From Amphiscolops sp. MND2022 (lineage: Eukaryota): DNA of 64,000 nt. The notes below the pieces were generated by a model, which worked only from the letters and a program-made list of their open reading frames with translations, searched no databases and had not been told where the DNA came from. Positions 1-57,910 of this stretch are shown here, piece by piece. Both the position numbers and the translations under genes were made by a program. Location: contig OZ076415.1 in the NCBI GenBank assembly GCA_964187785.1, positions 67,146,001 through 67,210,000 of the forward strand, read 5' to 3'. Within the stretch, counting starts at the first letter, position 1, and each line of letters begins with the position of its first letter.

Positions 1-908
1 TCCTCAAGCAGCGGCGACGATCGGGATCCACTCTCTCTGGTGGTGTTAGTATATCAATTTGATATTGGAGGTGTAGGCATTTTCCCTCTAATTGAATTTC
101 TGACAAATTTTAACAGTTTTTCTGTAAGAGATAAGTTAGGCGGATTGCTTTTGGTCCGTTTGCAGAGGACCCGCTCTCTCTCTCTTCGTAGTTAGCTCAT
201 TAGCTCAAGACGAACGTTTTCCCAGAAAACATTAGGAGACTCCAGTCAGTCCCAAGCAAAAACGAAGCAGTCGCTTCTTTCAATTAAACGGTGTCCGTGA
301 CCTAGTAGCATTGGGTCGTAGCATTGAGCTACCGGAGAACTTTCAAAGTCTCTTGCAGGAAAAACAACCCGTTTGCATTGGGTTCGAGAGTTGTAATAAC
401 GTTGTAGCAAAACTAAGGTTGGGAAAGTCACTCTGGTCCGAAGGAACAAATTGAGTAAAAGCCCGCTTAGGTCTCCTCGGAGGCTGGTTGAAAGCCGTGA
501 GCCCAGTGGTAATCTTGGAACCTATGTAGCATACCGAGTGTGGAAACCTAGAAATCTAGTGAACCTAGAAATCTAGTGAAAGTACCCGAGTGTTTGCCTG
601 ATAGTGATCTGGGACCCACGCACTTCAATCCTAAGGACAAGAGTGACTCCCTCGGACGATTTAGTTAAAGTAATTTTCCGTCAACAGTCGCAAGAGCATT
701 TTTTCAAGTGGGTACAAAAACTCTGTGGACTGAGTGTATTCTCCATAGGTTTTCTCAGGGTAACTTCGGCGGATTCGTTTACCCCGAATTACTCTAGTAA
801 GCAACCTCTTATCACCAACGGGATTTGTGAGTATCCCAGAACTTTCGAGTCTGTAACCCTGCACCTGAGGAACGTACCTCTCCCCAGTTGATAGGTGTGA
901 ATTTTACA
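1..908 (+). repeat. 5' LTR of element 1 (truncated by window edge)
   Basis: Matches 11911-12838 except 4 substitutions (113, 427, 776, 848) and a 20-bp (CT)n length difference. Ends ...TTTTACA. Confidence 0.95.
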
Positions 909-909
909 G

Positions 910-927
910 TGGCGCTCCTGGGTGGGC
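910..927 (+). promoter_or_regulatory. Primer binding site of element 1
   Basis: TGGCGCTCCTGGGTGGGC starts 1 nt after the LTR end. TGGCGC resembles tRNA-Lys-type PBSs; the cognate tRNA is not established. Confidence 0.7.
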
Positions 928-984
928 TGTTGGTTCTTAACTCTTTTAACAGGTGCAGTTTCAGCAGCTTTTCTTTTTGACAAA

Positions 985-1974
985 ATGGACACTCCTATCA
1001 GACCAGAACGATTTTCGTCCAAAGAGTACAAGGATTTTCGAACATGGCGGCAACATTTCACAAGAGTAGCCACAGCCAACGGCTGGGACAATCAACAGCA
1101 GAGACGGATGATCCCTTGTAGCCTCGGCAGTGGCCCGCTGGAAGAATACGCCACCTTGCCAGAGAATCAGCGTGAAGGCAACGACGTTACGGGGGCACAA
1201 CTTCTAGATGCGCTTGCGACAAGACTAGTCCCATTCGCCACGCAAAGGGGCCTGCGACAAGACTTCAAACTGGCAGCCCAAGAAGATAGCGAGAGTCTGC
1301 GTGAGTGGGCCAGACGAGTCAGAACACTTGGTCAGAGGGCCTACGGTACTTTGGCTGCTATGGACAGGGAAGCACTCCAGCGTGACCAGTTCATTGATGG
1401 ACTCACGGATGCAGACATCCAAGAGTCACTTTGGAAAGAGGACATAGATGGTTTTGGGGAGACCATCGAGCGTGCTCTTCGACTGGACAGCATCAACAAA
1501 GCAAAACAAGCGAAACAAAAACGACGAGCAGGACCAGTGGTGAGGCATGCCTACTTTGAGGACGAATGTGACGTAGAGTGTGGACACCGAACAGGCGTGA
1601 ACGCACTGGTCGAGCAGGGATCTGGTTCTGGCCTACAGGCTAAATGGGAGCGACAAGCGAAGGAGACGCAGGATCTGGTGAAACAACAGAACGTCTTTTT
1701 GCAAATGCAAACGACTATGTTGAACGAAACCCTCACTCGTCTCGAAGACAGTCTGAGGACACTCGCTTCAGGCCCGAAAGGTCGCTACGGTAGTCAGACC
1801 AATCAGAAGTTGTTCGACCCGTACCCGGGAGAAAAAAATAGTTTCGGGAACTCCGGCGCATCCCCCAACCAGGCTGAGTGCTATCATTGTCACGAGACGG
1901 GGCATTGGGCGAGGGCTTGCCCAAATCGTGGGACACCCGACGAAACCTCAACCAGCGAGAACCATTTAAACTGA
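985..1974 (+). CDS. gag: Gag with CCHC zinc knuckle
   Basis: Open ORF from ATG 985. Capsid-like region (WRQHFTRVATANGW) and CYHCHETGHWARAC knuckle. Confidence 0.9.
   Translation: MDTPIRPERFSSKEYKDFRTWRQHFTRVATANGWDNQQQRRMIPCSLGSGPLEEYATLPENQREGNDVTGAQLLDALATRLVPFATQRGLRQDFKLAAQEDSESLREWARRVRTLGQRAYGTLAAMDREALQRDQFIDGLTDADIQESLWKEDIDGFGETIERALRLDSINKAKQAKQKRRAGPVVRHAYFEDECDVECGHRTGVNALVEQGSGSGLQAKWERQAKETQDLVKQQNVFLQMQTTMLNETLTRLEDSLRTLASGPKGRYGSQTNQKLFDPYPGEKNSFGNSGASPNQAECYHCHETGHWARACPNRGTPDETSTSENHLN
1965..1971 (+). promoter_or_regulatory. -1 ribosomal frameshift slippery site
   Basis: T TTA AAC directly before the gag stop TGA. The -1 frame is open (PFKLKTAGE...) into pol. Confidence 0.75.
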
Positions 1975-2060
1975 AAACGGCCGGGGAGGAAACAATACCC
2001 GCCCTGGCCATAAAACCAATTCATAGCTCACAGTCAGATAGCAATAGCATAATCGATTTT

Positions 2061-2470
2061 TCGTGGTTAGAAGTTCAAGGCGATTATTTTGAAAGTAGCA
2101 CCTCTTTGGCGTTTTTTGGTCCATGTGATTTTAAGGATGATCATTCTGAACAATTTTGGGAAAAATTCGGTCACCTCGAGACCTTGAACGGACATGAACG
2201 CGAAGTTGGCAGAATTTTGGTGTTTTTTGAAGCCTCTCTCAATCGGTACTTGTACTATATAATAACTCGAGAAAATCAAAACGAAAAAACTACTTTTGCA
2301 AACTTCCAAAAATGCTTGAAAATGCTCTCTAAAATCATTTGTAGTTATCAAATAAAAAAACTAAGTATCTCGAAACCGAACATTGAACTCAATGGAATGG
2401 TGTGGACAGCAGCGCAGTCAATGATGCAAGACGAATTGAGTGACACCCCTATCCAACTCCACGTGTACAG
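2061..2470 (+). CDS. TARG1/OARD1-like macrodomain within pol, between gag and protease
   Basis: Colinear by-eye match to TARG1 blocks: EVQGDYF, FWEKFG, RYLYYIITR, KTTFANFQKCLKML, IKKLSISK, WTAAQSMMQD, IQLHVY. Confidence 0.7.
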
Positions 2471-5400
2471 TGGCGACGACATAGTTCAAGGGATGACCAC
2501 TTGCGAATCCGGTCCACCGAAACCGTTGCAGTATGGCAAGGTAACATTGCTGCAACCGAAGGATGAACGTAGCACCGCAGAGCAGCAGAGATTGACATGC
2601 AAATTTGAAAGTGAGCGCCCCCTATCAGTATTGGTGGAAATTCAGCTAGCTGGACGGGGAATTGATGCGTTAGTGGACACTGGAGCATGTGTCAACGTCA
2701 TCAGTGGAAAACCATTGGACCAACTGGGGTTCAGACCGAAAATAGAACTCTACCAAGGGAAAGCACGCACAGTGGATGGCTCGCCGCTGGCAATCGAAGG
2801 AACGGTGAAACTGAGGACACAAGTTGGCAACGTGGACACGACAGTGAAGTACCTGGTGGCAGAAGCAATCGAAGTACCTGTCATTCTGGGCCTGGGTTTC
2901 ATGACTACTCACAATGCTCGGTGGATCTCCCTTTACACCAATTCTGGACGGGAACAGAGTCAAGTGCAACTCCGTTGAAGTTGAAAGGCAGCTGGCACAT
3001 GGATGCTTTGACAGTGGCAAAAACAGAAGTAGACTGGAAACCATTGAGCTCGAAGCACCAAACGGACGTGGGACCAGATGGGGCTGAGAAACGCTCAAGC
3101 AAGCAAGACGACGTGTCAGCCACACAAGAGCAGTCGGAAGAACCAGACGACATCACTCACATAGTGGAGCTAACGTCGGGTAACATTGCGGGTTCAGCGA
3201 GAGGAAACCTCGAAGACATCGTTCGAGAGTTCAGAGATGTCTTTGCAGTGAGGGACAGTGAATTTGGGGCGACGAATCAAGTGTATCATCACATTACCAC
3301 GGGGGACAGTCGGCCCATCAAACTACCACCACATAGAGTAGCACCGGGCAAACTCCCAGACGTGAAGGCAGAAGTGCAGGACATGCTTCAGCGAGGGATA
3401 ATCCAACCATCCAACAGTCCGTACAGTGCCCCAATTGTTATGGTGCGAAAAAAAGACGGGTCAAACAGATTCTGCGTGGACTACCGCCGACTCAATGAAG
3501 TTACACGGAAGGATGCACAGCCAATACCGAACATCGACAAGACGCTGGACACCTTGAAAGGTTCCAAGTGGTTCTCGAGTCTGGACTTGGCAAGCGGTTA
3601 CTGGCAAGTAGAAGTGGCCCCAGAAGACAGACACAAGACAGCCTTCATAACGCCGGATGGAGGGCTATACGAATACAAACGCATGCCTTTCGGCTTGAGC
3701 AATGCGCCTGGGACTTTCCAGCGACTGATGAACGAATTGTTTAAAGCAGAGCTTCATAAATATGTTCTGATATTTCTAGATGACATCCTCATTTACAGTC
3801 CCACGCTGGAGGAGCACGCTGACCACATTCGACGAGTCATGCTAACGCTGAGGGCAGCTAACTTGAAACTCAAGCCGAAGAAGTGCAAGCTTTTCCAACC
3901 ACAAGTGGAATACCTTGGGCACATAATCGATCAAAATGGTAGCCGACCAGACAATAAGAAAGTGGAAGCCGTCCAGACGTAGCCACGACCAACTACCGTC
4001 ACGGGGGTGAAATCGTTCTTGGGATTTTGCAATTACTACAGGAAATTTGTCAAGGACTTTGCACAGAAAGCTGAACCACTAACCAACTTGACAAAGAAGT
4101 ACCAGCGATTTTCTTGGGACACAAAATGTGAGACAGTCATTCAAACGCTCAAAGATGCACTGACGCGCGCGCCCCTTCTCGCTCATCCCGATTACAGTAG
4201 CCTCTTCATTGTGGACACAGACGCAAGCAACACGCAGCTGGGGGCTGTTTTGTCCAACGTCATCGATGGTGTGGAAAGACCGCTAGTATACGCCAGTCGC
4301 GTTCTTAGTAAAACTGAATGACAGTATGCCACTACAAAACGTGAAGCTCTAGCCGTAGTGCAGGCAGTAAAATGGTTCAAACCATACATTTGGGGTCTCA
4401 AATTCATCATTCGCACTGACCACGCTAGTTTGAAATGGCTTTTCAGGCAAAACGCTGACGGAATGACTTTTAGAATGTTACAGAAGCTACAGGAGTTCGA
4501 CTACGAGTTTGTGCATCGAGCAGGGGAAAAGCACGGAAACGCAGATGGACTCTCAAGGCAGATCCCAGATGAACAACTCCCGGGGTGGCTAGACGGGGAA
4601 CTCGAGCAACTGGTGCAACCTGAACCGGAACCCTGTAGTATGAAAGAAGCTATTCAGCGTGTGAAGCAAAGCCTGATTCGGCAGGTCTCAACGGATCCAA
4701 TGGGTACTCGAGAGGGCGAAGCCAACAGAAGTTCGTCGCTCAGAGAGGAACAACAGAAGGATTCGACCTTGGCTGTTTTCAGACGATGGACGGGAGCGGA
4801 AGACGACCCGAACCAAGCAGCACTCCCCGCAAGACAAATCACGAGGGAGGAGGCTAGCGAGCATGGGACAGAGATGCTTAGATTATGGTCCTCCTGAGAT
4901 CGATTCGCGTACAAAGACGGGGTCTTGCATTACAGATGGCAGACGGCAGGAAACGAAGCAGACAGGCTTTTACCAGTGATCCCCTGGGGTTTGCGAGCGG
5001 ATGCTTTGCAACAACTACACGACAGCCCAGTGAGTGGAGGGCATATGGCAGTGGAGAAAACACTGGATCGAATACGACAACGGTTCTGGTGGCCTGGAAT
5101 GAGACAAGACGTGGAAAGGTACATCGAAGTTTGCAAACCCTGTGCGGCACGCAGAACACAAGGTAAGAAACTAGTTGCAGAGTTGAAGCCTTTCATAGTG
5201 GGCACCAGGTTTCACAAGGTAGCAGCCGACATCCTCGGGCCTGTGACGCTGACGAAGGACACCTCATTCAAATACATCTTGGTGATGACCGACCTCTTTA
5301 CAAAGTATGTGGTGACGGTCCCCTTGGCTAGCCAAACGGCGTCGTCTGTGGCTGAGGCAATCATACAGAACTGGTTCTTACGTTTCGGCATGCCGGACAG

Positions 5401-6265
5401 CCTACACACAGATCAAGGAACGAACTTCTGCAGTCAACTTCTGAAGGACGTGTGCACTTTGCTGGGGGTTGACAAGACGAGGACATCAGCATTCCACCCA
5501 CAAGGAAACGGACAGGTAGAGAGACACAACCGGGTAGTAGCCGACATGCTGTCAAAATACTGCGCCAATAACCCTAGAATCTGGGACCGGCTTGTGCCCT
5601 ATCTCACATTCGTCTACAATACGACTGTACACAAGACGACTGGAGCAACGCCCTTCAGTCTGGTCTACGGCGCCGAGTGTCAATACCCAATAGACCTCTT
5701 CTATCCTGGGCAACCGGGTGCGGAGAGTTTGGACGATGGATTTGTGGACCACCTCGGACAGGTGTTCAGAGAAGCTCATCAGCAGGCGAGGGTTACACTG
5801 GGCACCAATCAACGACGTGTGAAGGACGCTTATCACAAAAAAGTGCACGGTGATCCCTACTGCGAAGGGATGCGAGTGTGGTTGTTCTGTAAGCACAAGG
5901 CCATCTCGAAGAAGTTCAACCTTCCATGGGAGGGGCCCTATTTAGTACTGGAACGGATCTCCGATGTTACGTACAAAATAGCGAAGGAACCTGTGAAAGA
6001 AGGCAGATGGCAAATTGTGCATTATAACCGACTGAAGCCCTACACAGCGGAGGCCGAAAGACCACGACGAGGGGTCAATCAATCAAAGCAGACAGTTTAC
6101 GAAGAAAATACCGATTCAGAGGCGACGGAAAGCGAAGATGACACCAAGCATGAGACTGGGGACCCACGTGGCACCTTAACCGGAAAACAGACATCAAAGG
6201 AAAACCCTAATTTCCAATCCCCTGCCAAGAAATTTTGTTTAGAAATACCTGCTAACCCGTTTGGT

Positions 6266-6790
6266 AGCCTCTGTTTAGGTGATTCAATAACCAAGCGACT
6301 GCGAGCACGTGAAGTAGCTGATGACTGCGTAGTCAGGGGTTTCAGTGGCATCACGATAGACGAACTACGGCGGTGACTCAAGAGGTCAGACGCAACGAGG
6401 ATACATGTGGTGGCGCTGTGCATTGGAACGAACGACATATTGTCAGGTTCAGCAACTCCGAAGACCATGTGGCGATCGTACGAAGAACTGCTGGATGACC
6501 TTGTGCTCAAGTTCCAGCCATCAAAACTCGTGGTCTGTACTCTGCCTCCCCTCGAAGGTTCGCTTGCTCACCACGACGACCTGGTGACAAAATTCAACAA
6601 CTGCTTAAAGAAGCAGTTGGAGACGTGGAGACAAAAGGCAGCCTCAACGCAGATAGAAGTTATTGACGTTTACAAGCAATTCGAAGGAAAAAACTTGATG
6701 TCTCGGGACGGCATTCATCCCAACAAAAGGGGGCTGACGACCATGGCACACTTGTATCGACGGGTATGCGAACTTGAAAATGTGGCAATG
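6266..6790 (+). CDS. SGNH/GDSL hydrolase domain C-terminal to integrase (in pol frame, one stop at 6374)
   Basis: Block I LGDS (6278-6286), block II GFSG, block III IGTND, block V DGIHP (6707-6718). Confidence 0.85.
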
Positions 6791-7428
6791 ACGGGGGACA
6801 GTGACAGTGAGGACGAGGAACAACAGTTCTGGATGCCCAACACTGCCACATTGGGACAGAGAGTATCTAATACCGATACCCAAGGTACTCCTGTGGCTGC
6901 AGACGAGACATTGACGCCGGGACCCCTTCTGAGCGCAGGGACACACGAAGGGACAGTACTGGAGACTCTGCAGCTGGGCACGCCAGCTGATCCAGCACGT
7001 ACTCCAGTTGAGGCAGAAACTCCAAGAGCCAGTGAGAGGAAATCTCTAATCCCCCGAAGAAGCTTCACCCTGTTCCCAACGACGCCGCAATTGGATCCCT
7101 GTAGCGCAGACACCGGACAATCGAGACCCCTTCGAAACCGCAGGGCCCCAGACCGCTTCGGTGTACCTGTAACCTACACATAATTCAAACTATTCTTGAT
7201 AGAGTATAATCGTTTTTATTTCATAAACAAAAACATATAGATACATATATAAGAAAGGTTTTTCTTAAATTTTCAAAAGTAGGATTCTGTTGATAAATAA
7301 CCCTCCATCATAAATATCTGATAGGGTAGGGTGATCATAGTACGGACGTATCCCTTTCTACTTTCAAGAGTCCATGGTAACTACGTGCGCAGTATAACAC
7401 CCATCCAAGAATATCTTTTTTAAAATTT

Positions 7429-8040
7429 GTGCCATTAACTTTAGACCATTACCGAGTGCTACAGAATGGAACTCCCTCACAGTTCGAGAGTCAATGCAAC
7501 AACCCTGGCTCAACCCTGGAAAAGACCAATCAACAGGCCGACTGTGGACAAACGCACGAGCTGAGCCGGCATTTTAACTTCCAAGGAATCAGCCCGTCGG
7601 ACGGCTCCTACGGAGGGTTTTGGGGAGAGCGGATGAGAATCAACGACGACCAGACGTTTAGTAATCCACCACCCCCACCCTTACAGACCGGGCACTACTG
7701 GGCGAGTGAGAGCGAGGGGAAATTGTACTACGTGGAGGACTGGTACTGGGCGTCGCCAACATCGAAAAGATTATACCTCCTAGAGTATAAACCCACCCAC
7801 AGGAAATGGCCGGTCACTACCAATACGATGACTTTGGTGCCCATGACGAAGGCTTGGGAGGAGTATTGGGAGGTATTCCTCCATTGGCTCCAGAGGAAGG
7901 CTAAAGCGCCAGAGCTAGTGGTGCAACAGGCCATCCAAACTTGCCTTCTCGCCACGCAGGAGGTTCGAGCACGAACCAACGAGAGAGAGCGCTCCAGGCG
8001 CAGGAGCCCATCGCAATGGAGCACCGAAGTGAACTTTTAA
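7429..8040 (+). CDS. Orphan accessory ORF between pol and env
   Basis: 203 open codons between AT-rich spacers. First in-frame ATG at 7633; possible splice acceptor TTTAG at 7444. Trp-rich core and RERSRRRSPS tail. Confidence 0.55.
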   Translation: MPLTLDHYRVLQNGTPSQFESQCNNPGSTLEKTNQQADCGQTHELSRHFNFQGISPSDGSYGGFWGERMRINDDQTFSNPPPPPLQTGHYWASESEGKLYYVEDWYWASPTSKRLYLLEYKPTHRKWPVTTNTMTLVPMTKAWEEYWEVFLHWLQRKAKAPELVVQQAIQTCLLATQEVRARTNERERSRRRSPSQWSTEVNF

Positions 8041-8254
8041 CAACTCATGAAGTTAACTGTTGAATACGGAACTAAATCAAAAATTTTGTATGGAGTACTA
8101 TAATCACGGTGGAATTGGAAATTCTTTTAAAGAATTATTGAAGCCAAGCTAGTACGAAACAGCAAAGTCTCTTTATAAAAAGAAACGTTACTGAAACGTC
8201 TCTCTAGTGCTTCTGTGCACTCCGCAAGAAAAAAATTGTAGTCAACACCGAAAC

Positions 8255-10420
8255 ATGTGTTTAGGCCTCATGCTGTCCTTCTTTCTTCTTTGCTCACTGT
8301 GGGGAATTACCTCTGCCTCACTGGTCAACACATCGATTGGTGCCATATTTGTGCCCCAGACACCAGTTGTACTCCGCACGACAGATGTCAAAACGTGGCT
8401 CTTTATACCTTTTCCCGAAGGCGTAACAATTAACAAAACCCAAGTTCAGGATATCTTCGAAGGGCATTGGAGCGAAATGGATGAGATCTGGTCCAAGTAC
8501 AGCACATCGAAATACGTCTGGGGCAGCGCCCACAGTCCTCCGGACCATCTTAGCCAGAGTATTTCAAGGCTCTGTGGTGACTATAAACTCACGGCCGGCT
8601 GGATTGATGCCCAGAGAAAGATGATGCAAGCACTGGAACACCAAATGACACTAACGAACGAAGTACGACAGAGACTAATAGAACGAGCCCAAATGATGGT
8701 CAACTCCACGGAACCTGTTTGGTCTCGACAACCAAGGTTTTGGGCACCGGTCGTTGCAGGTGCGGCAGTCGCTACAGTATTGGAACCCGCCCTACCAGAA
8801 GAAGGATGCAAAATACTTTCAGTCTTTGGCTTGTGTAAAGACCATAAAGCAAAAATGATAGAAAAATTGCATTCAGCGTTGGGGGCAAACAAGGAGAAAC
8901 TCAAACAACTGTCCGAAAACAGCCAAGACGCTATTTTTGCACTCGAAAGCAGAGTAGAAGCAACGAAAGAAAACCTCCGGCTACTCAGCACCGAGTCAGA
9001 CACAAACTTTGCTCAAATTCGGAGTGAGATGAGCCGAATGCTGGATTGGCAGAGGGAACTGGTCAAATGGAAGAACGACTGCCAAAAAGGGGGCTTCGCA
9101 CACAGCTTCTGAACAATTCTGGAATGGGCCAATGGGACAAACTACCTAACAGGGCTGATCAACGAAGTAAGTTCGTACCGCATGGGCCTTCTAACATACG
9201 AGCGTGAAATGAGCGACGCACTAGAGGTCTTGATTCACGGACGACTGCCAGTGAGTATGGTCCCACCAGACGACCTGGCCACAATCCTCAATCAAATTGA
9301 AAAGAACAAACTCCGAGAAGCAATACCACGTGAGTTTCTAATGTCCTACTATAGTTTCGAACTAGTAAATTCTGTGCATGCAACAGGACGAGGCCTCCAC
9401 ATCAAATGGAGGGTGCCATTACATCCACTAACGGACGGGTTGCATGCCACGTAAAGAGCAATAGCAACACTGCGGCCGATCGAAAACACCACCACGGGTT
9501 CTCGGTTCAAGTTGAAGAAGACCATTTTGTTGGTGTCGCAGCAGAAGACGACTTATGCCGAGGCAGATGATCTGGATATCATACATCACTGTGATGGGAA
9601 CAGCAAACTGAAGTTGTGTCAACGAAACTTCGCAACCACTTCTAGACCGCAGACAGGGTGCTTGTCGAGCTTATTCACCGGAATGGAAGGGCACGTCTTA
9701 GAACAATGTGAGCAGAAGGTAGAAACGCTACCGACACAACCTAGGACAGTCTCCTTGGGGCTATCAACGTTTTTGGTGGAAGCTCCCAACAATGCCTACA
9801 CTTGGATCAATATCAGCAGCGTAAGTGGTCATCGTTCCATCATTCCCGGTTGTATTAGTTGTGTCATAAGGCCCCCTTGTTCGGGCTATTTGGAGCATCC
9901 CAACGGCATTCAACTGGTCCCCAGTGGAGACGATTGTGAAGTGGAGGATCCAGGCGATGTTAAGGAAGTAGTCCAGCCCGGCCTCTGGCGCGACGTACTC
10001 GGTTTGATAGCAGAGATTGCTCCGAGAGATGATGATGGAATCCAGACGCAAAGTATCTTGGACGAAGTCACATCAGAATTACTAGGAGCTCCAAGAGGTG
10101 GAAATTTGTCAGAGAAACTGCGGACAGTGGCCACACCAATCATCCAACGGTGGGCGAAGGACACGCCACCGAAAAGTGCGAATACACATGGACAACAGGT
10201 AACGTGGATGGTTGGGTCAATCGTTCTCTTCTGCTGCTTTCTTCTAAGCATAACCATAATTGTGTTTGGTCTTGTGTGGTGGAACCCTCGAGGGCAACAT
10301 CAACAGCCTCAGACTGCACCACCTGGTGCACTGGCACCGCCCCCCAGCCCTGGACCAGATGATCGATTGTCCGATGTGGAGCCTAGGAACCCAAATACCA
10401 GCCGCTTTTCACCCGCATGA
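8255..10420 (+). pseudogene. env: Envelope-like class I fusion glycoprotein, two in-frame stops
   Basis: Signal peptide, furin-type RQPR (8726-8737) then hydrophobic FWAPVVAGAAVA, heptad region, Cys-rich ectodomain, N-glycosylation sequons, TM helix near the C-terminus. Stops at 9110 and 9452 in the same frame. Confidence 0.85.
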
Positions 10421-11095
10421 AAGCAACCCTAGCCAGGGACTGAAATGTCATTGTTGTGCAGTTTGTACTTGCTTTAATGGTTCATGTTTTTTTGGTGACA
10501 TTGGGAGACAATCATGGTGCTACATAACAACTTTAACCCTTCAACCTAGATTTCTGACCAGATAAAAGTAGAAAGAGAGAAGCCCCTACTAAGCATTTTT
10601 TGAAATAATTTCCGAATTGATGATCGGACAATTGTTCAAGTATTGATGGAGGGATTCTATTTGAAAAACTAATGAAACAAATGATTGACTTAATACATGA
10701 AAAAATTTCAAGTAAAGGTCCTGTTAACATCCTTTGTTTCAGCCACTACTCCAGCCGGTCTCGTCATAGGGACTGAACGATCAAATTGCACAACGAGAAG
10801 CAAATCCAATTAAAGTACCATCAGGGATCAGCGCTTATGATAAAGGAAGTCCCTACGACGGGCCAGCCCAACAAATCAAATCACAAACCCAGTGCTAACC
10901 TTGTAACTTATGCCACTTTGAGACGTGTCAATCGGTGCTAATATTGTAATCTTTTACTTAACCGCTATCTTGTAACTATCAATTGTATCTGGAAGCGATC
11001 GTCTTTGCTGAGCTTGAGGAAATCGTGTGGGATGGTGAGAGAGAGATTTGTGATAACCCACATTCTTGTTCTATTCAGGAGAATAGATATAATCT

Positions 11096-11107
11096 GGAAG
11101 AAGGGAG
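11096..11107 (+). promoter_or_regulatory. Polypurine tract of element 1
   Basis: GGAAGAAGGGAG immediately before TGTGAGATT. Confidence 0.75.
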
Positions 11108-11864
11108 TGTGAGATTGATAAAATAACCTAATTGCATGAATAATATAAGATGAAAATACTAACTAGATTTCGATGAAAGCGTTCTTAATAACGGCAAAAT
11201 GAATATCTTCGGAGACAATAACTCAAACTTATATCAAGAAAGAACGTCGCGATATACCAATTGCTTATGTACTGGACAAATTTGATCGTGACAAAATGTG
11301 CCGATTGTGTTAAGGTTCTCAAATTCAAACCATGAAAACTAACAAAAATTTATCTCAACTTACCAAATTTCTCGGCAACTGTATGAATTCAATCGAAGTG
11401 TCTTCTCTGCTTGATGAAAATTTCAAAAGTGATCCAAATAAGATGTGATGCCCAAAAATAGAGCATGCAGTTCAAAGTTAAAAGATACCAGGCGAAAACC
11501 GTCCGACTAGGCGGACATATTGAAGGATAGGTGTCAGCACATGCCGGGAATCAAAACCTTCCCAACTGATAAGTGTTTCAAAATATGTCTAGATACAGCC
11601 AATTATGGCAAGTTCATGTCGATTAATAAAGATTCGGGGACAAAAATAGTAAAATGGGCTGACGGCCGTCTGGGAAGCCGTCAAAGATATGCAAAACGCG
11701 ACTGATAACCGATCTAAAAATACGGCAAACGGAGTATAAATACCAGCAATTTTTGACCTGAAGATCACAAGAAAATCGGGAGCAGAAGCAGACGATACCC
11801 CCTTTCGAGAAGTCACGATACCGATACCCTCAAAGCGGATCCGAGACTCCCTAACTGTTTCCGT

Positions 11865-11900
<36 letters not shown>

Positions 11901-12081
11901 TTTCACCCGCTCCTCAAGCAGCGGCGACGATCGGGATCCACTCTCTCTGGTGGTGTTAGTATATCAATTTGATATTGGAGGTGTAGGCATTTTCCCTCTA
12001 ATTGAATTTCTGACAAATTTTACCAGTTTTTCTGTAAGAGATAAGTTAGGCGGATTGCTTTTGGTCCGTTTGCAGAGGACC

Positions 12082-12119
<38 letters not shown>

Positions 12120-12838
12120 AGTTAGCTCATTAGCTCAAGACGAACGTTTTCCCAGAAAACATTAGGAGACTCCAGTCAGTCCCAAGCAAAAACGAAGCAG
12201 TCGCTTCTTTCAATTAAACGGTGTCCGTGACCTAGTAGCATTGGGTCGTAGCATTGAGCTACCGGAGAACTTTCAAAGTCTCTTGCAGGAAAAACAACCC
12301 GTTTGCATTGGGTTCGAGAGTTGTAATAACGTTGTAGCAAAACTAAGGTTGGGAAACTCACTCTGGTCCGAAGGAACAAATTGAGTAAAAGCCCGCTTAG
12401 GTCTCCTCGGAGGCTGGTTGAAAGCCGTGAGCCCAGTGGTAATCTTGGAACCTATGTAGCATACCGAGTGTGGAAACCTAGAAATCTAGTGAACCTAGAA
12501 ATCTAGTGAAAGTACCCGAGTGTTTGCCTGATAGTGATCTGGGACCCACGCACTTCAATCCTAAGGACAAGAGTGACTCCCTCGGACGATTTAGTTAAAG
12601 TAATTTTCCGTCAACAGTCGCAAGAGCATTTTTTCAAGTGGGTACAAAAACTCTGTGGACTGAGTGTATTCTCCATAGGTTTTCTCAGGGTAACTTCGGC
12701 GGATTGGTTTACCCCGAATTACTCTAGTAAGCAACCTCTTATCACCAACGGGATTTGTGAGTATCCCAGAACTTTCGGGTCTGTAACCCTGCACCTGAGG
12801 AACGTACCTCTCCCCAGTTGATAGGTGTGAATTTTACA
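11108..12838 (+). repeat. 3' LTR of element 1 (~1731 bp)
   Basis: TGT...ACA ends with a 7/9 terminal inverted match. Contains two (CT)n tracts and a 17-bp tandem duplication. Start inferred from the PPT. Confidence 0.85.
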
Positions 12839-17746: not shown

Positions 17747-18148
17747 AACAACAGCTCTCGAGCATATTAATCTAAATACGTTATAAACACAAATACAACA
17801 AATTGTCCATGTGGAAGGTAAGGTCGATCGTACACCCAGCGCGCAAGCTGGACACTCCATAGGGACACCGGCAAAGCTTTTAGGCTGAGATCATGGTCTT
17901 TGAGTTTTCACTACCAAAAATGGTGACAAGCTTCCTTTTTGTGGCAGTACACCGTGGTTGGGCACGTTTTTAGCTGTTACCGTGGTCTAGGTCGTTCGGT
18001 GTCTCGCGGGGCTGCTTCTATGCTTTTCTCACTGCGTTCACTAGCAGGTACTTTGACGAAACATGCTCGATCCGTCCACGTCATTTTTGAACAGTTTTTC
18101 AAGACATTCAAAAGTTTCGATGTGTCCAAAGTTGACGTGAAGTACTTG

Positions 18149-19773
18149 TGTGATAATCCTCCTCCTCGGAGTCTCCTTCTGATATTATGGTTTCGTCTAA
18201 GTTCGGTTCATTTTGACAAAGTGGTCTAGCAGGATTCCTTAATTCTCTCATGTCAGAGGCTCTGAGGGGATGATCATCCTCATTTTCAGTATCTGAGTTT
18301 TCTATGTTTGATGCGTGAACTCCATTAGACCTAATACTTTTGGATCCCGAAGGTTGAGAGTTTTGCATTTCATTAATTTCAGATCTGGGATTTGTTATTG
18401 TTGATGTTGTTTTGGTTGTTCTTATTTCTTTCAAAATTGCATCAAATTTGTTCTCCATCTCTTCTCTCATTTTCATTATCCTGTCATTGTTCTTTTGTTC
18501 AAAGTTCTCTGTCCAAACTTGGATTTCGTTACTGATTTGACTAGGTTCTATCAGACTAGATCTGTTCTCGTTTTCACCTAAAGGTTCCTGAATAACAGTA
18601 CTAACATTAGTTAAAGTTTCATTACCTTGCATTGGCGTTTCTACTTGTGTTTCACTCAATTCTCGCTCAGGTGAAGGTGTTTCATGCCTTCTAGATCTTC
18701 TGTTTCTCTTATTTCCCATTGTTCTCAAGTGAAAATGTGTTGGGTTTGCTGGGGAAGAATTTGAATTCAGCTGAGATTTTCGACAAAACAAATTGGAAAA
18801 TGAGACAACTGTTGATTATGAGAAACTGCTTTTACAACGGTTTGGAGTGTGGGTTTTATCAACTGTTTTCAGCGAGAGTTATTTCAAAGAATGATTGGGG
18901 TTTAAGGTCCTGAGCACAAGGAAAAAATGGTGGGGATTACACCCGTTTTTATGGGTGTCATGGTCTTCATATTCTATAAAAAAGATTACATCATGTGTCG
19001 TAATTCTATTTATAACTCTAAATATACGTTGCATGACAAGCAGAAACAAGTATTGTACAGCTACAGCAAAAACCCTGGAAAACTGCATAATGACGTATAT
19101 ACGGTCTTAAATTTCCGCATACCAACGAATAATCCCAATGCAATAATGATATAACACCGTATGATGGGAAACGCGGAAAACCGCATATTGACGTATAAGC
19201 GCCGGCGATTTTCCGCATAGTGACGTGTAAATATCACTGTGACAATGTATCAAGGAAATTACTGTTTTCCGCATGGTGCCGCATAAGCGGTGGTTAAAAT
19301 CCGCACATTGCAGTATATGCGTTAGAAATTTTCCGTATGATGGTGTATAATTGTTAATCACAAACAGCATGATGAAGTGTATTCATTTTCACATTTTCGT
19401 ACTGTGACGCATACTCATTGATTTGAAAAGTCACGTTTAGATTAATCATTGCTTCCATTCAGAGATTATGGCCTAAGTTCAACTAAACAACTCAATATTT
19501 CAAGCAAAATTAGGGTGAAAAGTTAGGAAAGCTTGGTCAACATGCCTTAATTCGCATCTGGCTTCCACAATTCCACCAAACAAACTATAAAATAAATATT
19601 TACATGACTTAATTCGTTGGTTAGGGTAAACAACGAGACAATAAAAGCAAAGAAATAAAGGGGGGAAGGCAGTTTATTGAGTCTCATCAAATTGAGTTTA
19701 TCTTTCAGGCTGCTTCTTTGTTTTCCTTTTTACTCTTGCAGAACAGGCCCAGAGCACCCATGAGGCTGCGACA
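18149..19773 (-). repeat. 3' LTR of element 2
   Basis: Matches 32658-34281 with about a dozen differences; TG...CA ends. Confidence 0.95.
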
Positions 19774-20788
19774 GTCCCGCACCTTTAAAGGAGAACAGTG
19801 CAGCCTCGAACCCATCTATAAAGGCACGGGATCTGACACCTCTGTCCCTGACTGTCTCCCCGTCATAAGCGGTTGCAATAAGGTACTCTCCCAGCGTCTC
19901 CAATGCTATCAAATCGTAGCATTTACCACACCAATCGCAAAATCCAGCGACGTTTGTCATCACGGGGGGCAGAAGTCGATACTGCAGTCTTTCTTGGAAG
20001 GGCAAGAGTAGTAGGTTTGTGCTATGTCCCGCTTGGAACGGAAAGTGAGGAGAGGGTCCAGCATTAGGTCCAGTAATCAATTGTGAAACATGAACGCTTC
20101 CTTCATGGGGAGGTATCTGGATCATTATTGGTGCATTACTATGTATAGGCAAACCATTAGGGTTAGCGGTGAGGGCTCCACTGTTACCCAATGTCCTTGG
20201 TTGGATACCACTGAGCGGGTGATCTGCTTGCTGATGTCTAGGGTCAGTGATTTGTTGGGGTTGATAAATTGGGTAAGTATTTGCAAAATTAGGCGGGTAA
20301 GTAGGAATGGGTCTATTAACCACTGTCGTCTCGTGGTTGTTGCTTCTTGGTGTAGGGAGGATCGCCGCAGCTGGCCTCCCGTAGCTGTTTACAGGTCGTG
20401 CCGAAGGTTCGACCGACTCCCATGGCGACATGAGTGAGTCTTCCAGTTCCGTATCAATGAATGAAGTTGATGAAGACCCTCTACTGAATTGATGCTCCTC
20501 GATGATTTCCATCATCTGCCGCTCAATTTGTGTCCCAGCAGTGTCAATTGTCTCAGCAATTGAGGGGTCTTCTGGTCCAGATGTGAAAAGGGTTGCCGAA
20601 GTCGCACCCACGAATGCCGTCAACATATCCGATCTAGGTCCACCAACTCTGAATCTTTCCTCTATGTCGGACAGATCATTCGGATGAACGACAAATTCTT
20701 CTCCTGAATCGCTTGATATATCTACAATCCCAGGAGATTGAATCGAGAGCAAAGGGCTATCTTCAAGGGTAAATTGCAGGTTATTCAT
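19730..20788 (-). CDS. Orphan sense-strand ORF (352 aa) in the env position of element 2
   Basis: Uninterrupted ORF: S/P-rich linker and a C-terminal block with FCDWCGKC. No TM helix. Overlaps the PPT region and runs ~40 nt into the LTR. Confidence 0.65.
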   Translation of the reverse strand: MNNLQFTLEDSPLLSIQSPGIVDISSDSGEEFVVHPNDLSDIEERFRVGGPRSDMLTAFVGATSATLFTSGPEDPSIAETIDTAGTQIERQMMEIIEEHQFSRGSSSTSFIDTELEDSLMSPWESVEPSARPVNSYGRPAAAILPTPRSNNHETTVVNRPIPTYPPNFANTYPIYQPQQITDPRHQQADHPLSGIQPRTLGNSGALTANPNGLPIHSNAPIMIQIPPHEGSVHVSQLITGPNAGPSPHFPFQAGHSTNLLLLPFQERLQYRLLPPVMTNVAGFCDWCGKCYDLIALETLGEYLIATAYDGETVRDRGVRSRAFIDGFEAALFSFKGAGLSQPHGCSGPVLQE

Positions 20789-22120
20789 GTTCTTTTCTTA
20801 TGTTGTAGGATGATTTCCTCAGGTAAGGTTTGAAGGTAGTTTTCGTTTTAGCTGGAGTTACTGCTTTTGGGCGAATCAAAAGACCATATGGTGATTGTCT
20901 TTTCCGTTTCTTTCGCTTATAACAAAACCCCGCGGAAAAACTGAGTGTCATAATTTCGGGGTTTTCGTTTTCCTTATAGGGTCTTTTCTGTGATAGAACT
21001 TGTTGAATCCGCGAAAATTATCAAGTTTCCTTTTAATTTGATATAAACATCTACCATTTAAGGTGTTTCTTCAGTTTTCAGGGAGAATCTCATCTTCACA
21101 CAAGACGCATGACAGTGTTGAACCATTTTAATGAGATATAAACAAAATCATAACTAAACTAACTTGAAAGGATTTCATGACTAATAACTCCCATTGATGG
21201 AGAAATGAAGTGGAAATTGATATACATATCTAGGTTTACATGACTGAGGTTTATATTTATGAATGAAGTTTTTCGAGACTGAAAATTTAAATTTTGTGAA
21301 ATATCACATTTATCCATAGTTCATCAAAGTTTTGTTTCGAGTCCCGCACTTGAAAAGTGCGTTATATCTCAAAAAGTAAAAGAGCTTCGGGTCTAGTTTA
21401 CCTTTCATTCCCTTCCGGTTTGTCCGAATTGGCTTGTATAAAAATGCATTCTGTTAATAGTTCATCATTTTCGCATATTCAATAGCTAGTGTTAGCTACT
21501 GAACATCATAACGTTGTAAGAAGTTGAAGTTAAGTCGTCTATGTGCTTTAAAACAAGCAGGCATAGCTTTCAACGTGGGATTGGTTATCTGTACTATGCC
21601 GCACATGCTGTTGCAACTATCCGTATGCTGCCGTATGTGTAGTGGTGATTTTCCGTATCGTAAGTCGTTTTCGCATACTGCCGCACAGGCAGTGGTGAAA
21701 TTCCTCTCCATGCCGCATGGGGGCCATTCATGAGATTTGCATCGTTGACCGGTTGCTAATTTTGATAATTACGTAATCGTCCATTCTGGCAGTAATGGAC
21801 GGTAATTAATTGACCAATCAGATTAGAGTATTTTCTGGATTAATGCGCAAATTTCAGCATTCATTTGCTTTTTGCCTTTCGTTTAACGCCACGCCTTCTA
21901 TTGAATTTCAGCGTCAACTTGTTAATTTGGTACATAATTGCAGTCTTTTGTGTTTCTAGTATTGTATTAATTTCAGTTGCAGTCTTTTTTAGTTTCAGCT
22001 AGAAAGTTTCATTCTTTCCTTCGGTCATCGATCTACTCTTCTTTCGTTTCACATTATTAAAGTTCCAATTGTAATTTTCCATTTGTATTCTCTGAGATTA
22101 TCGGCCGCATTAGCGATACC

Positions 22121-25100
22121 ATGGATTCTCCCGACCGGAGGAAGTCAAGACAACAACAAATTCCGCGGAAACAGCTCGCTTCTTGGGGTTACAAGTCACC
22201 TACTGCGATTACTCCACGTAAGTTCACTTCATAGTTTGTTTCAGATTTTCGAATTTTGATTTGGATTTTCTGATCAGAAAAAAGTTTTAATTGAATAGTT
22301 GGCCAGACTATTCAATAAAGTCGATCTTCTTCAGATCAAGTTTGAATTTTTGAAGCAACTAAGCTTCCGGTTTGATATCAATCACTTCCGCCCACATTAA
22401 TTTCCTTCCACCGCATCCGGTCTCAGTCTATTATTTAGCGGAAATTGTTGATCGTGGTTTGATTCGTGGTTCATCTTGATAATAAACCCATTTGTTTTAG
22501 TTGAACTTGGATCATCGCAAAAGTCTCCCGCCAGGTCCCCAACAAGGACCTATATTCCCCTTCAGGTCGCTGAACTCCCTGTTGCTGGACCATCCTCGCC
22601 GGTTCAACCCTCTAATAGTACGCCAATAAAGGCCAACGACGGGATTGAGCAAGTATTAGCTGACGGACTCAACACTTCCTTTTCACCTGGTCAACTCGTT
22701 ATCCATGATCCCGAAAAGTCCGATAGAGCAGAAAATGAAGAGGTCGAACCGTCAGTAATTGAGATCTCTCCGGCGTTACCGGATCTTTCATTGATGAGTG
22801 TTAGTGATCCAAAAATAATAGGTAATCCGGAGAACACCGTTACGCCACCCGTCTCTCAATCCAATTCACCCCGATTTGCTGCATTCCTCACACGCACCGA
22901 AACTGCTCCCGACCCAACTGGACCTCCCGAGGTTGTTTCTGGGGAAAATCTCCCCGAACATTCGGGTGAGCCTGAACAGAATGAGGCTCCAAATCCCAAA
23001 GTGGAAACATCAGGACCCTCTACTTCGGCACCACAAGAACTAGTTATCACACGGCAAGAGGCCTTCACCCTTTCAAGTGTATTAGGCAGAATTCCGCGGG
23101 AATTGATCAGTCAGACTGAGGTAAACGAGTCAGATAACATTACACTGAATGTGATTGAAGATCCCCCCCCAATCTCCGGATAAAGGTGTCGTTCAAAACA
23201 TTGAACCTATGGATACGGGGCCCAGCCAAGAAAATGTCAACACTTTATCTAGTTGCGATGAAGCCTTTACTGTCAGGACAAAGCGACAACGGCCAAAGTA
23301 CTCGTTGAGAGTCCACATGCTGCGTAAGCATCCTGTTTTGAAATTTTTTGCTACCGGGCCAATTGATCGGAACAAGACTCCCTATAAATGGTGGTGCCGT
23401 GTGTGCCGAGTGGAGCTGTCATTAATGAGCAGGGGTGTTCTTGAGTTATTATCACATTTTAAAACTGACTCCCATCTCATCAAAGAACATCGCATTAGAC
23501 TTGAAATTCCAGGAATGTCTCTGTACGACAAGTTTGAAAAAGAGCTGACAGGGAACGCTCTATTGGCCGCCAGAAGAACAGCAAAAGAGACCTACCCTAT
23601 CGCCCCCCAGTTAGATGTCTGTAGATTGATGGTCGGGCAGGACAAATTACCGGATTTTACCACTACGTCCAGCCCAAGCGAAGACGTTATTTCTCAGATC
23701 CGTATTCTAGAGCATGGGTTACGTCATGGTGGGCACATTGACAGTCTTATTGGGATGTGGAATGAGACGGTTCGCTTATTCCCTGGAAACTCTCAAGCTT
23801 CCTCCTTCAGTTGGGAACGACAACGGTTATTTGTAAGTAATTTCTATATTTTTGTTTTTTTTTCTTCGCTATAGTACATACTCCTGGTGTAAATAGTATT
23901 ATGTTCGCAGGCTATACTTGTCTTCATGTACCGCGAATTGTTGAGTTATGGGGTCACGTCCATTACAACTTCCGGGTCTTACTCCCTTTCTTTCCAGAGT
24001 GACCAGTTTACCACCCATGTTTTCGTCAACTTTTGGTCTGGTAATGTCTTTTACCAAATATGCCTCGGTACCGGACCGAGAGGAACCTTAATTCCCAAAA
24101 GGATTATCAACTTCATCGCATCATTTCGTAGTCTCTTCGAATCTTCCATTTCATGCGTCAGCCTTGTTAATTGTCCCGACAGGCTAAATTCCAGTCTCAA
24201 AACTTCTCTGCCCGGAAAATATCGAGTTACTTCGTCAATGGTTTTGGACAAAATGAGCTAGAGAGATGTCTTGCTCTCCCTACATCAAGAATTTTGGAAA
24301 GGCACGATTACCGTACGATCCTTGACTTCCGTCTAATGAAACTCCGCACAGCATTGGATCGCGATTGGCTACAGTCTCTCCCGACCTTACACAAGGTACT
24401 TGAACTATTTTCATTAATAAGTACTCTTTTAAAATAGATTATATGTTTGTCTTGAGGCTCGATTTGTTTTGTATTTCAGTGCGTCTTGGATCTCTCCTAT
24501 TCTCCTCGGGAAGCATCCATCTTGATTGAACTGTTATCCTGCCACTGGGATAAAGTCTTGGACCACCTTAATCGTGTGTCCCGATTGCCGTCCTATCGGT
24601 TTCATATGAGAGAGGTCAGTATCTACTCCACATAATCGGCATTGTTCAAGCATCTATTCATCTAAAACATCCTTTATGTTTCCAGCCCAGTACCCTCGAC
24701 GAGTGTTTTCGTCTTGATACCACTTATTTGGCACGGCTATTTATTATCAGATGTGTCCTCGATCACTGTTAGTACAGAGTCTAAAGTTGTTTTTCTATTC
24801 CGATCGTGATCTGGAGCTCTTTGTAATGAGACTTCTGTTTTCTTTTAATTAGAAGTGCTTGCAATTATTATCTCTAGGTAGATTTCCCAAAATCTTGGAT
24901 TTTTGTTCAGCATACCATTCTTTTTACCTTGTAGGATTGTAATTGTTGCCAGGATTCAGTATGATGTTGTATATTCACCATTGTAAATTCCGCATATTAA
25001 CGCTTGATTGTAGTCCAAAACCGAATGATGACTCATACTCGTTTTCAGAAATTCGCATAATGGTGAATGACTACACTGCAGAGTAGGCACGTGCTTTTAT

Positions 25101-26472
25101 TAATTGTAAATACCCCGTAGTGCAGCATGTGCATAAATCGAAAAACGTATAGTGTCGTATGATCGTTTGCTCAAATCCGCACAGAGACGCATAGTCACCA
25201 GCTGTAATCCGCATAGTTGTGTATAATCATTTGTTGAAATCCGCATAGTGACGCGTAGTCACCGGCTGGAATCCGCATAGTTATGTATAACCATTCAGGT
25301 AAAAGCGTAGTATGGTGAGGATTGTTTCATTTATTGGAGACTTTTGACCGACTTTCTCATGTGTTTCATATAACTCAGCCTTCACCGAGGTCCGTGATCA
25401 ATTTGGTGCTGGATTTCGATTGTATAATCAGTACGCCGTTTTTGTATATAGTCAATTACGAAACAATTTACCCGACAGTTTCCTCGGTAGCATTTCCGAT
25501 TGGGAGAAGTATTTGAGTATCGACCTGAGTCAACCCAATCTTCCCTTCAAGACTCCAGACGAGTTCATTCTGAATTCCGAATACCACAATCTCGTCAGTA
25601 CAAGCAAGCTTCCTAGGCCTGGTGTATTCGTTGAACAAACTATTTCGTTCTGCAAGGCATTCTGTGGGATATTGCTGTCCCACGAAATTATTAAATCCGA
25701 TCTAATTCGAGGGCTTGCATGTTTCGACTCTGCAGTTATGTTACATGGATCCGAGGACCAGTATGTTGCCGCCGTTGAGTGTCTCACTGGTCATTTCGTG
25801 GAGATTGGGTGGTTGAACCTCAGTGAGAAAACAAAATCGGTCAGCCAGTATCGATCACTTGTGTCAAAATTCCGGACTGTCAACATGGGACAAGTCGAGG
25901 ATTGGTTTCAATTCCTCGTCTCTCATTACGAATTGCAATGCCGGCCTGAGCTACATAAGCTATTCAAGCTATCTAGTTTGTGTCTTCCCCCGTTGGTAAA
26001 GATCCCAGCAGCCTTCGTAATCCCGATACCCGAGTTGGGTACTGTTGAGGAATCATTCCGATCTTGTATAGGGGCTATACAGCTTTCATACTCTACAGTG
26101 CCCAATGTCTCGAGCTTGTACCAGGATCCCCGCGCCATTTCAAGAGTCTTTCGTCTACTAGGAAGAGGGAAGGAGCTTCTGGAGGACCGAAAATTTTCCA
26201 TATGGAATTTTTTGAGAGGTAATGGAGCAAAAAGGTCAACTCTTTGCACCAAGTTTGAAAGTGCATACAAGCGTTCGGTTGTGGCTCCTGATGATAAGAA
26301 GCTACCAGATGACGGAGATATCACTTGTGGCAGTGGTCCCAGTACTAGTAACAATTCTCCATCTCCCCGCTCAGTTTTGGGAAAAGCTACTCTCTCTCTG
26401 ACTCGTTGTGCAGGTGACAATTCCGCTAACCAAAAAGCCAAGTCCAAAGGGACTAAAGGGAAGAAAGACTGA
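22121..26472 (+). pseudogene. Multi-exon antisense gene inside element 2: C2H2/BED-like zinc finger, hAT-transposase-like fold (tentative)
   Basis: Phase-consistent GT-AG joins: 22121-22217, 22501-23832, 23911-24395, 24480-24614, 24686-?; last long ORF ends 26472. ZnF CRVC-x16-H-x5-H. Frameshifts near 23163, 24250 and 25410. Confidence 0.75.
25173..25298 (+). repeat. 64-bp tandem duplication rich in ATCCGCATAG
   Basis: Units start at 25173 and 25237, each with two CCGCAYA motifs. Confidence 0.8.
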
Positions 26473-26666
26473 GAAATATTTCTTCTAGTTTCATTTTGAG
26501 TTCTCTTGTTTCGTGTTATATAGTTTTTCATCGTTGTATTTATTTGTCCATCCACTGTATTATTGGGATGAATGTTTTATGTTTATCAACAATCTGAATT
26601 GAACGAAAAGAAGCATAGTCGGCGAGTATAGACCGACAGAAGAATGATAACCTTCAATCTGTTTTT

Positions 26667-33228: not shown

Positions 33229-34281
33229 GGTTCTCAAGTGAAAATGTGTTGGGTTTGCTGGGGAAGAATTTGAATTCAGCTGAGATTTTCGACAAAACAA
33301 ATTGGAAAATGAGACAACTGTTGAATATGAGAAACTGCTTTTACAACGGTTTGGAGTGTGGGTTTTATCAACTGTTTTCAGCGAGAGTTATTTCAAAGAA
33401 TGATTGGGGTTTAAGGTCCTGAGCACAAGGAAAAAATGGTGGGGATTACACCCGTTTTTATGGGTGTCATGGTCTTCATATTCTATAAAAAGGATTACAT
33501 CATGTGTCGTAATTCTATTTATAACTCTAAATATACGTTGCATGACAAGCAGAAACAAGTATTGTACAGCTACAGCAAAAACCCTGGAAAACTGCATAAT
33601 GACGTATATACGGTCTTAAATTTCCGCATACCAACGAATAATCACAATGCAATAATGATATAACACCGTATGATGGGAAACGCGGAAAACCGCATATTGA
33701 CGTATAAGCGCCGGCGATTTTCCGCATAGTGACGTGTAAATATCACTGTGACAATGTATCAAGGAAATTACTGTTTTCCGCATGGTGCCGCATAAGCGGT
33801 GGTTAAAATCCGCACATTGCAGTATATGCGTTAGAAATTTTCCGTATGATGGTGTATAATTGTTAATCACAAACAGCATGATGAAGTGTATTCATTTTCA
33901 CATTTCCGTACTGTGACGCATACTCATTGATTTGAAAAGTCACGTTTAGATTAATCATTGCTTCCATTCAGAGATTATGGCCTAAGTTCAACTAAACAAC
34001 TCAATATTTCAAGCAAAATTAGGGTGAAAAGTTAAGAAAGCTTGGTCAACATGCCTTAATTCGCATCTGGCTTCCACAATTCCACCAAAGAAACTATAAA
34101 ATAAATATTTACATGACTTAATTCGTTGGTTAGGGTAAACAACGAGACAATAAAAGCAAAGAAATAAAGGGGGAAGGCAGTTTATTGAGTTTCATCAAAT
34201 TGAGTTTGTCTTTCAGGCTGCTTCTCTGTTTTCCTTTTTACTCTTGCAGAACAGGCCCAGAGCACCCATGAGGCTGCGACA
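32658..34281 (-). repeat. 5' LTR of element 2
   Basis: Copy of 18149-19773, followed by the PBS and flanked by the TSD. Confidence 0.95.
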
Positions 34282-57800: not shown

Positions 57801-57910
57801 AGCTTCCTGTTAATTACTTTCTTACTAAGAGAATGTAAAAATACTTATATGCTTACTTAAACCAGAGCCGCATGTGCGGTAAAGGAGTCGGCTTAGGTCT
57901 TTTTTTCTGA

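Follow-up and report, generated by a model that had tools for sequence, protein, structure and literature searches.

The retroelement and its surroundings

The window, that is, the whole stretch of 64,000 nucleotides analysed here from contig OZ076415.1 of Amphiscolops sp. MND2022, opens with a single LTR retroelement which occupies its positions 1-12838 and whose features are collected in Table 1. LTRs with TG...CA ends, a target-site duplication, and gag followed by protease (PR), reverse transcriptase (RT), RNase H (RH) and integrase (IN) in that order are all found, and from this domain order the element is filed under Ty3/Gypsy. The genome around it is that of an animal and holds a macroH2A-like gene and 32 PARP-domain matches. 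The LTRs, 1697 and 1731 bp long, differ by 8 mismatches and by 2 gaps that add up to 34 bases, and since ACAGT stands on both flanks as well, the insertion is young. The copy itself is broken: pol is interrupted by four in-frame stops and changes frame once, and the env-like ORF has two stops. The stretch at 910-926 is presumably the primer-binding site.

Table 1. Features of the LTR retroelement at the start of the window (window coordinates)
Feature	Position	Strand	Basis and remarks
5' LTR, part inside the window	1-908	+	whole LTR 1697 bp, beginning 789 bp before the window; TG...CA ends
PBS-like stretch, begins with TGG	910-926	+	sequence
gag, with PNMA-like capsid region and CCHC knuckle	985-1974	+	ORF, Pfam
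Predicted -1 ribosomal frameshift signal	1965-2009	+	T TTA AAC heptamer, 7-nt spacer, hairpin
TARG1/OARD1-type macrodomain, altered ADP-ribose pocket	2061-2471	+	sequence match, fold, alignments
Aspartic protease	2616-2918	+	gag-asp_proteas E 3e-10; frame change near its end in this copy
Reverse transcriptase and RNase H	3218-4537	+	ORF, Pfam; in-frame stops at 3980 and 4319
Integrase (H2C2, rve, C-terminal domain)	4898-6043	+	Pfam; in-frame stop at 4895 ahead of it
SGNH/GDSL hydrolase at the end of Pol	6266-6772	+	Lipase_GDSL E 7e-11; in-frame stop at 6374
Extra ORF between pol and the env-like ORF	7381-8040	+	also in other copies of the family
Env-like ORF	8195-10420	+	sequence hallmarks, label inferred; stops at 9110 and 9452
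Polypurine tract	11094-11107	+	sequence
3' LTR	11108-12838	+	followed by 5-bp target-site duplication ACAGT, also before the 5' LTR

The TTTAAAC heptamer lies in the gag frame at 1965-1971, and the hairpin 7 nt downstream (1979-2009) is calculated to have -20.1 kcal/mol (z -2.9), a value that only one of 200 shuffled sequences equalled. Between this signal and the protease the macrodomain is located, so that it opens Pol. At the other end of Pol, the GDS, GTND and DGIH blocks of the SGNH/GDSL domain are still readable, and the same domain is present in the database proteins P0015 and P0207; the latter is a Pol like that of the window family, with an RT 96% identical, which NCBI labels as a protein of a bacterial metagenome-assembled genome and which probably represents eukaryotic DNA in a bacterial bin. 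The extra ORF has no Pfam match. The third ORF matches neither Pfam nor PDB entries and may be called env-like from hallmarks seen by eye, namely a hydrophobic N-terminus, an RxxR-type site followed by a hydrophobic stretch, and a transmembrane-like stretch near the C-terminus; it also resembles the third ORFs of other families.

A second Gypsy-type element lies on the minus strand at 18108-34281; its repeats are separated by about 14.5 kb, it has additional ORFs, and tblastn found no macrodomain in it. Another element at 35322-42988 has repeats of 232 nt at a distance of 7435 bp, and its gag-pol ORFs appear to be BEL/Pao-like. Minus-strand ORFs at 41426-42840 of the window and in the loci L051 (910-2058), L031 (8799-9809) and L070 (8104-8898) share a wording that we assume to be JmjC-like; some of them adjoin Gypsy elements, and that of L051 has no Pfam match. 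A 172-nt unit is repeated in three tandem copies at 57910-58425, and no tRNA gene was found in the window.

A TARG1-type macrodomain at the head of Pol

A preliminary description of this DNA had proposed a TARG1/OARD1-like macrodomain ahead of the protease, and all the sequence blocks on which that proposal was built are indeed found there in the pol frame. When the segment is compared with PDB sequences by phmmer, five matches appear at E<=10, all of them human TARG1 (C6orf130), with E 2.3e-9 to 3e-9; the alignment spans query residues 32-147 and passes the second loop without a gap. Aligned locally to P0032, a TARG1-like protein, the segment scores 140, while the best of 1000 shuffled sequences reaches 60. 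An Atlas feature search returned macro-domain clusters at 0.93. A Pfam scan of the segment gave no Macro match at E<=1 and only weak unrelated ones (E 0.14-0.21).

The predicted structure agrees with this assignment. AlphaFold2 supplied with a 26-row alignment gave a macro fold with pLDDT 86.6 and pTM 0.82, whose weakest internal part is the region of the second loop (pLDDT 75-77); a model from the single sequence was discarded because of its pLDDT of only 44.9. In Foldseek, TARG1 chains occupy ranks 1-7 (best E 1.4e-11, TM 0.76/0.81) and DarG comes next, although this is no independent confirmation of the sequence match, the model having been built with a macrodomain alignment. The segment is also kept in the family: the host genome (G000) contains 26 DNA matches from 22 candidates, and the database proteins P0015 and P0002 are 82% identical to it. 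In P0015 the macrodomain lies in frame within an uninterrupted Pol of 1756 aa. Neither a missing fold nor a missing conservation, which would have spoken against the proposal, was observed. Judged from matches and model, then, 2061-2471 encodes a macrodomain of the ALC1-like/TARG1-like class, with a minimal alpha/beta/alpha macro fold nearest to TARG1.

It is hard to see how this could be chance resemblance or a neutral relic. Such a reading could appeal to the silence of Pfam Macro, to the broken state of the window copy and to the weak constraint described below, but the match to TARG1 with its shuffle control, the fold, the open frame of P0015 and a dN/dS well under the singleton baseline all oppose it, and we give it hardly any credence.

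The ADP-ribose pocket

Can such a domain still handle ADP-ribose? For the roles of residues we follow the relevant parts of PMC6397177 and PMC7050489. In TARG1, Asp20 and loop 1 hold the adenosine, the GxG loop holds the diphosphate, Lys84 and Asp125 carry out catalysis, and active hydrolases share the pattern TKx(30,35)Px[IL]GxGxD (PMC6397177, relevant part). As far as the mutants described in the relevant part of PMC5928194 are concerned, G123E, G43E and I44E each abolish both ADP-ribose binding and activity, and G123E is more stable than the wild type.

In the window copy the second loop reads S-K-P-N-I-E-L-N and, being aligned to TARG1 without a gap, puts Asn, Glu and Asn in the places of Gly121, Gly123 and Asp125, respectively; the position of Pro118 is Ser and that of Lys84 is Arg. 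The preliminary description had read Arg for the catalytic Lys and IELN for the GCGLD loop, and the phmmer alignment reads the same (Arg and NIELN). Loop 1 is glycine-free and 1-2 residues shorter than in TARG1, its exact register depending on the aligner. Thus, neither the catalytic pair and hydrolase pattern nor the GxG diphosphate loop and a glycine-containing loop 1 are found. The positions of Asp20, Asp37 and Thr83 are retained in the window copy. At the Asp20 site, Asp is shared with P0015 while P0002 and one recent copy have Asn, and it is to be noted that Asn or His is frequent there in pattern-intact macrodomains as well. Among 11 TARG1 sites taken from PMC6397177, the window protein matches three and P0002 two; 19 pattern-intact rows of the same genome match 9-11.

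These changes are not confined to the window. In 17 other copies, three of which form one tandem cluster, the Gly123 site is Glu in 15, Val in one and Gln in one; the Asp125 site is Asn in 16 and Lys in one; and the Lys84 site is Arg in 11 and Gly in three, with three unreadable (no Lys in 14 readable copies). No copy has Gly at the former or Asp at the latter of the two loop sites. Since no readable copy has Lys84, Gly123 or Asp125, the change of the pocket is a trait of the family rather than decay of a single copy. P0015, P0002 and P0198 likewise all have Arg, Glu and Asn at the three sites, with a loop 1 varying in length and letters. The hydrolase pattern is absent from P0001 and P0002 and present in 128 of 149 representative matches. 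The net charge of the macrodomain is -9 in the window (pI 4.8), -3 in P0015 and -2 in P0002, and +1 to +14 in the 19 pattern-intact rows.

It had been suggested that the domain binds ADP-ribose rather than hydrolysing it. This is against the sequence: the Glu inside IELN stands at Gly123, as in the binding-dead mutant G123E, loop 1 has no glycine, and no readable copy of the family has Lys84, Gly123 or Asp125, so that binding of ADP-ribose is unlikely. The further suggestion of an anti-PARP module or decoy finds little to stand on for the same reason, Gly121 having become Asn and Pro118 Ser beside the short glycine-free loop 1. The idea of an ADP-ribose eraser suits the pattern-intact macrodomains of other families much better than the window family.

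Macrodomains in other retroelements

By RT, the sister of the window family is family D (L100, L101; support 81/85). No macrodomain or SGNH match was found in the two family D loci examined, many family D matches lie within open frames of 1420 aa, and the absence of the domain from this sister means that it is optional for the clade. Elsewhere in the genome macrodomains are found at three Pol positions besides the one before the protease. In family B the domain stands between RNase H and integrase (all of the 150 scored matches, many in frames of 1610 aa) and retains Lys84 and Asp125, with Val at Gly123. A third query likewise gave 150 of 150 scored matches, and among 20 that were fetched the domain mostly follows the integrase; L066 and L069 have it between RNase H and integrase, L067 has it between protease and RT, and in L068 it closes a Gag-protease ORF. 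Among the aligned macrodomain rows from outside the window family, 19 of 23 carry the TARG1 pattern, in a sample biased to intact domains because it was picked with an intact query. Relatives with the domain before the protease were found only within the window family, by word-seeded searches of weak sensitivity.

Where did the window family obtain its domain? Relocation from the sister family B, with its RNase H-integrase position, is not supported over fresh capture, nor fresh capture over relocation: family B ranks only 9th-10th by score for two window-family proteins and falls outside the top 14 for P0002, and a macrodomain tree from a quick search places families A (window) and B on long branches in an open fork.

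The pocket was closed more than once. In L054, L057 and L070, where the domain follows the integrase, Lys84 and Gly43 are absent and the Gly123 column has Glu; L054 and L057 lie in open frames of more than 1900 aa. By RT, L054 and L057 fall into the post-integrase clade, a long way from the window family, and closure must therefore have occurred at least twice.

Several further elements are worth recording. L068 and L102 (G000:C1:97.80 Mb and many other matches) belong to a high-copy family with an 834-aa Gag-protease-macrodomain ORF and a pattern-intact pocket; no RT match was found in about 7 kb downstream, and the family is likely, as far as its sequence tells, to be non-autonomous yet to retain the eraser. 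Outside this genome, the domain is found in Pol proteins including the RefSeq entries XP_048515211.1 (the sawfly Athalia rosae) and XP_045479182.1 (the ladybird Harmonia axyridis). Gypsy Pols of these two insects (P0066, P0170) have tandem macrodomains before the integrase, one clear and one degenerate. A Gypsy-type Pol from JGI (P0180) has a post-integrase macrodomain and then a Tpt1/KptA-like stretch (E 3e-6 when the whole protein is compared with Pfam), possibly an ADP-ribose writer beside an eraser.

Selection on the domain

Nucleotide changes were counted among the 17 loci and the window, those shared between lineages being taken to date from the time when the family was active and singletons to reflect decay. 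For changes shared by at least two lineages, dN/dS of the macrodomain is 0.32-0.34; singletons give 1.08-1.33, and the difference has a Fisher p of 0.0016-0.0019 whether CpG sites are counted or left out. With a stricter cut of at least three lineages, which leaves few shared changes (7 synonymous and 8 nonsynonymous), it is 0.32-0.35, and p is 0.054 with CpG sites in and 0.021 otherwise. At the same cut, linkers give 0.38-0.50, PR 0.11-0.13, gag 0.02-0.03, and RT, which the loci cover only in part, 0.08-0.14. Thus, the macrodomain is under moderate purifying selection, only slightly tighter than that on linkers and weaker than that on the core enzymes. Identity to P0015 ranks the segments as dN/dS does: RT 96%, PR 90%, macrodomain 82%, and five of six linker or tail segments 69-77%, the RH-IN linker having 86%. 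Pattern-intact macrodomains of other families, in six measurable pairs, have dN/dS of 0.13-0.25 by a different, pairwise method, and the lineage of L054, L057 and L070 about 0.17 with dS near saturation. In the macrodomain tree, the window family shows a long branch (2.0 changes per site) followed by short tips.

What may the domain do?

The explanation that we favour, with a probability of about one half, makes this TARG1-type macrodomain in a Ty3/Gypsy Pol a pseudo-enzyme: it would have lost both the binding and the hydrolysis of ADP-ribose, and the element would keep it as a folded but dispensable module with a structural or docking role. What makes a pseudo-enzyme likely is that the catalytic pair and both phosphate-binding loops have been replaced throughout the family. 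The ancestor of the domain would have been an active eraser of ADP-ribose, of the kind that other families of the genome seem to retain; the pocket would then have been lost, and the fold retained as a spacer or docking module. The domain would be translated only when -1 frameshifting yields the minor Gag-Pol product, it would enter the particle with that product, and the protease would probably liberate it. After the loss, selection would probably act mainly on folding, so that Gag-Pol assembly and the timing of the protease are left undisturbed; the transframe region of retroviruses offers an analogy for such a role, and dUTPase in retroviruses is another domain that shifts its position in Pol.

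What stands against the pseudo-enzyme also feeds the other readings. Loss of Lys and Asp is no proof of inactivity by itself, because mechanisms vary among ALC1-class hydrolases: in the part of PMC7050489 that treats them, DarG retains the Lys alone and SCO6735 has neither residue, yet is called a hydrolase. With the fold intact, Asp20, Asp37 and Thr83 kept in the window copy and Arg a conservative substitute at Lys84, the domain might bind ADP-ribose or ADP-ribosylated targets, or hydrolyse in a non-canonical way, and counter PARPs as a reader, sponge or decoy. We consider this improbable, for the N-I-E loop carries the change of the binding-dead mutant G123E, loop 1 is a short stretch of variable sequence that lacks glycine, the Asp20 site is Asn in P0002 and one recent copy, and a net charge of -9 disfavours a diphosphate ligand. 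The same charge makes it very improbable that the domain serves as an RNA-binding chaperone in the particle: its place directly after the nucleocapsid knuckle in Gag-Pol would suit that task, and TARG1 G123E and G43E still bind RNA independently of the pocket, but the part of PMC5928194 on this activity ascribes it to positive surface patches.

A long branch with short tips, together with Glu123 in an unrelated lineage, could also mean a new, selected function, and here a rather unlikely alternative is that the closed-pocket fold has become an antagonist which binds a putative host protein (for example a helicase-PARP or another ADP-ribosylation factor) or a protein of the element, and blocks it without ADP-ribose. 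Stasis after the long stem branch, a second loop nearly fixed across subfamilies 18% apart, and the recurrence of Glu123 with loss of Gly43 and Lys84 in L054, L057 and L070, of a different RT clade, would all fit. So would the long helicase-PARP ORFs of the host. In four of six PARP loci examined (L105, L106, L107 and L109 on G000:C4, C13 and C8), a ZNFX1/UPF1-like helicase is joined in one frame to tandem PARP domains, in single frames of 1700-2000 aa, and from this sequence the proteins might possibly be ADP-ribose writers on retroelement or viral RNA particles. Against an antagonist, Gly can become Glu by one base change, which makes convergence cheap; eight invariant residues at 82% identity are not significant (about 0.2); constraint is near the level of linkers; and family D lives without the domain. 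The wider picture that could be drawn, an arms race over ADP-ribosylation between Gypsy elements and host helicase-PARP genes, in which most families would have a working TARG1-like eraser at one or another position in Pol and at least two lineages, the window family among them, would independently have closed the pocket by changing Gly123 to Glu and made the fold an antagonist that binds proteins, is unlikely as a whole.

Whichever holds, one genome offers many Gypsy families, TARG1-like domains at four Pol positions ranging from pattern-intact to pocket-dead, and helicase-PARP genes, a ready-made panel on which a restriction of retroelements by ADP-ribosylation could be examined. As a natural mimic of the binding-dead TARG1 mutant, the window domain is the best negative control built into this panel.

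Comparison with known systems

With human TARG1/OARD1/C6orf130 (PDB 4J5S, 4J5R, 4J5Q, 2L8R) the window domain shares the minimal macro fold (TM 0.76-0.81, 27% identity). It differs in lacking Lys84, Asp125, the GxG loop and the glycines of loop 1, in being acidic, and in lying inside a retroelement polyprotein whereas TARG1 is a stand-alone enzyme. The macrodomains of other Ty3/Gypsy Pols (the other families of this genome, XP_048515211.1 and XP_045479182.1) are of the same domain class within Pol, but they are placed between PR and RT, between RNase H and integrase or after the integrase and mostly keep the catalytic pattern, while the pre-protease position is seen only in the window family.

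Viral macrodomains, such as those of alphavirus nsP3 and the TARG1-like ones of invertebrate RNA viruses, resemble it in having a macro fold within a replication polyprotein, and Kadipiro virus VP8 and polyproteins of virga-like or flavi-like viruses are among the matches in BFVD. The nsP3 macrodomain binds and removes ADP-ribose, as stated in the relevant part of PMC7018654; the pocket of the window domain, in contrast, is predicted to be closed. Counter-defence by macrodomains is established for RNA viruses, whereas macrodomains of LTR retrotransposons are apparently unreported within the literature searched: no published report was found among the matches listed, subscription journals, Repbase reports and supplements lying outside the search. 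The word 'macro' does not occur in the main text of PMC9289625 or PMC5408684, and a word search finds no mention of macrodomains in an accessory-domain review (PMC6338049) or a survey of LINE ORF1 (PMC4120745). Annotations in RefSeq or CDD may already mark such retroelement domains. A link between ADP-ribosylation and retroelements is provided by SIRT6, whose ADP-ribosylation of KAP1 silences LINE-1 (PMC4695847, relevant part).

Capture of enzymes by LTR elements has precedents. In the parts of the two papers that concern us, an AlkB demethylase was captured by an orchid Gypsy element (PMC9289625), and GDSL, DEDDy and dUTPase domains by LTR elements of rotifers, among which catalytically dead derivatives of GDSL were noted (PMC5408684). 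The window macrodomain may be another case of a captured enzyme turned pseudo-enzyme. Like the orchid AlkB and the rotifer GDSL, it is an optional captured enzyme module, and SGNH/GDSL is also present in the window element; but the orchid and rotifer modules are separate ORFs, while here the macrodomain and the SGNH/GDSL domain are both fused in Pol.
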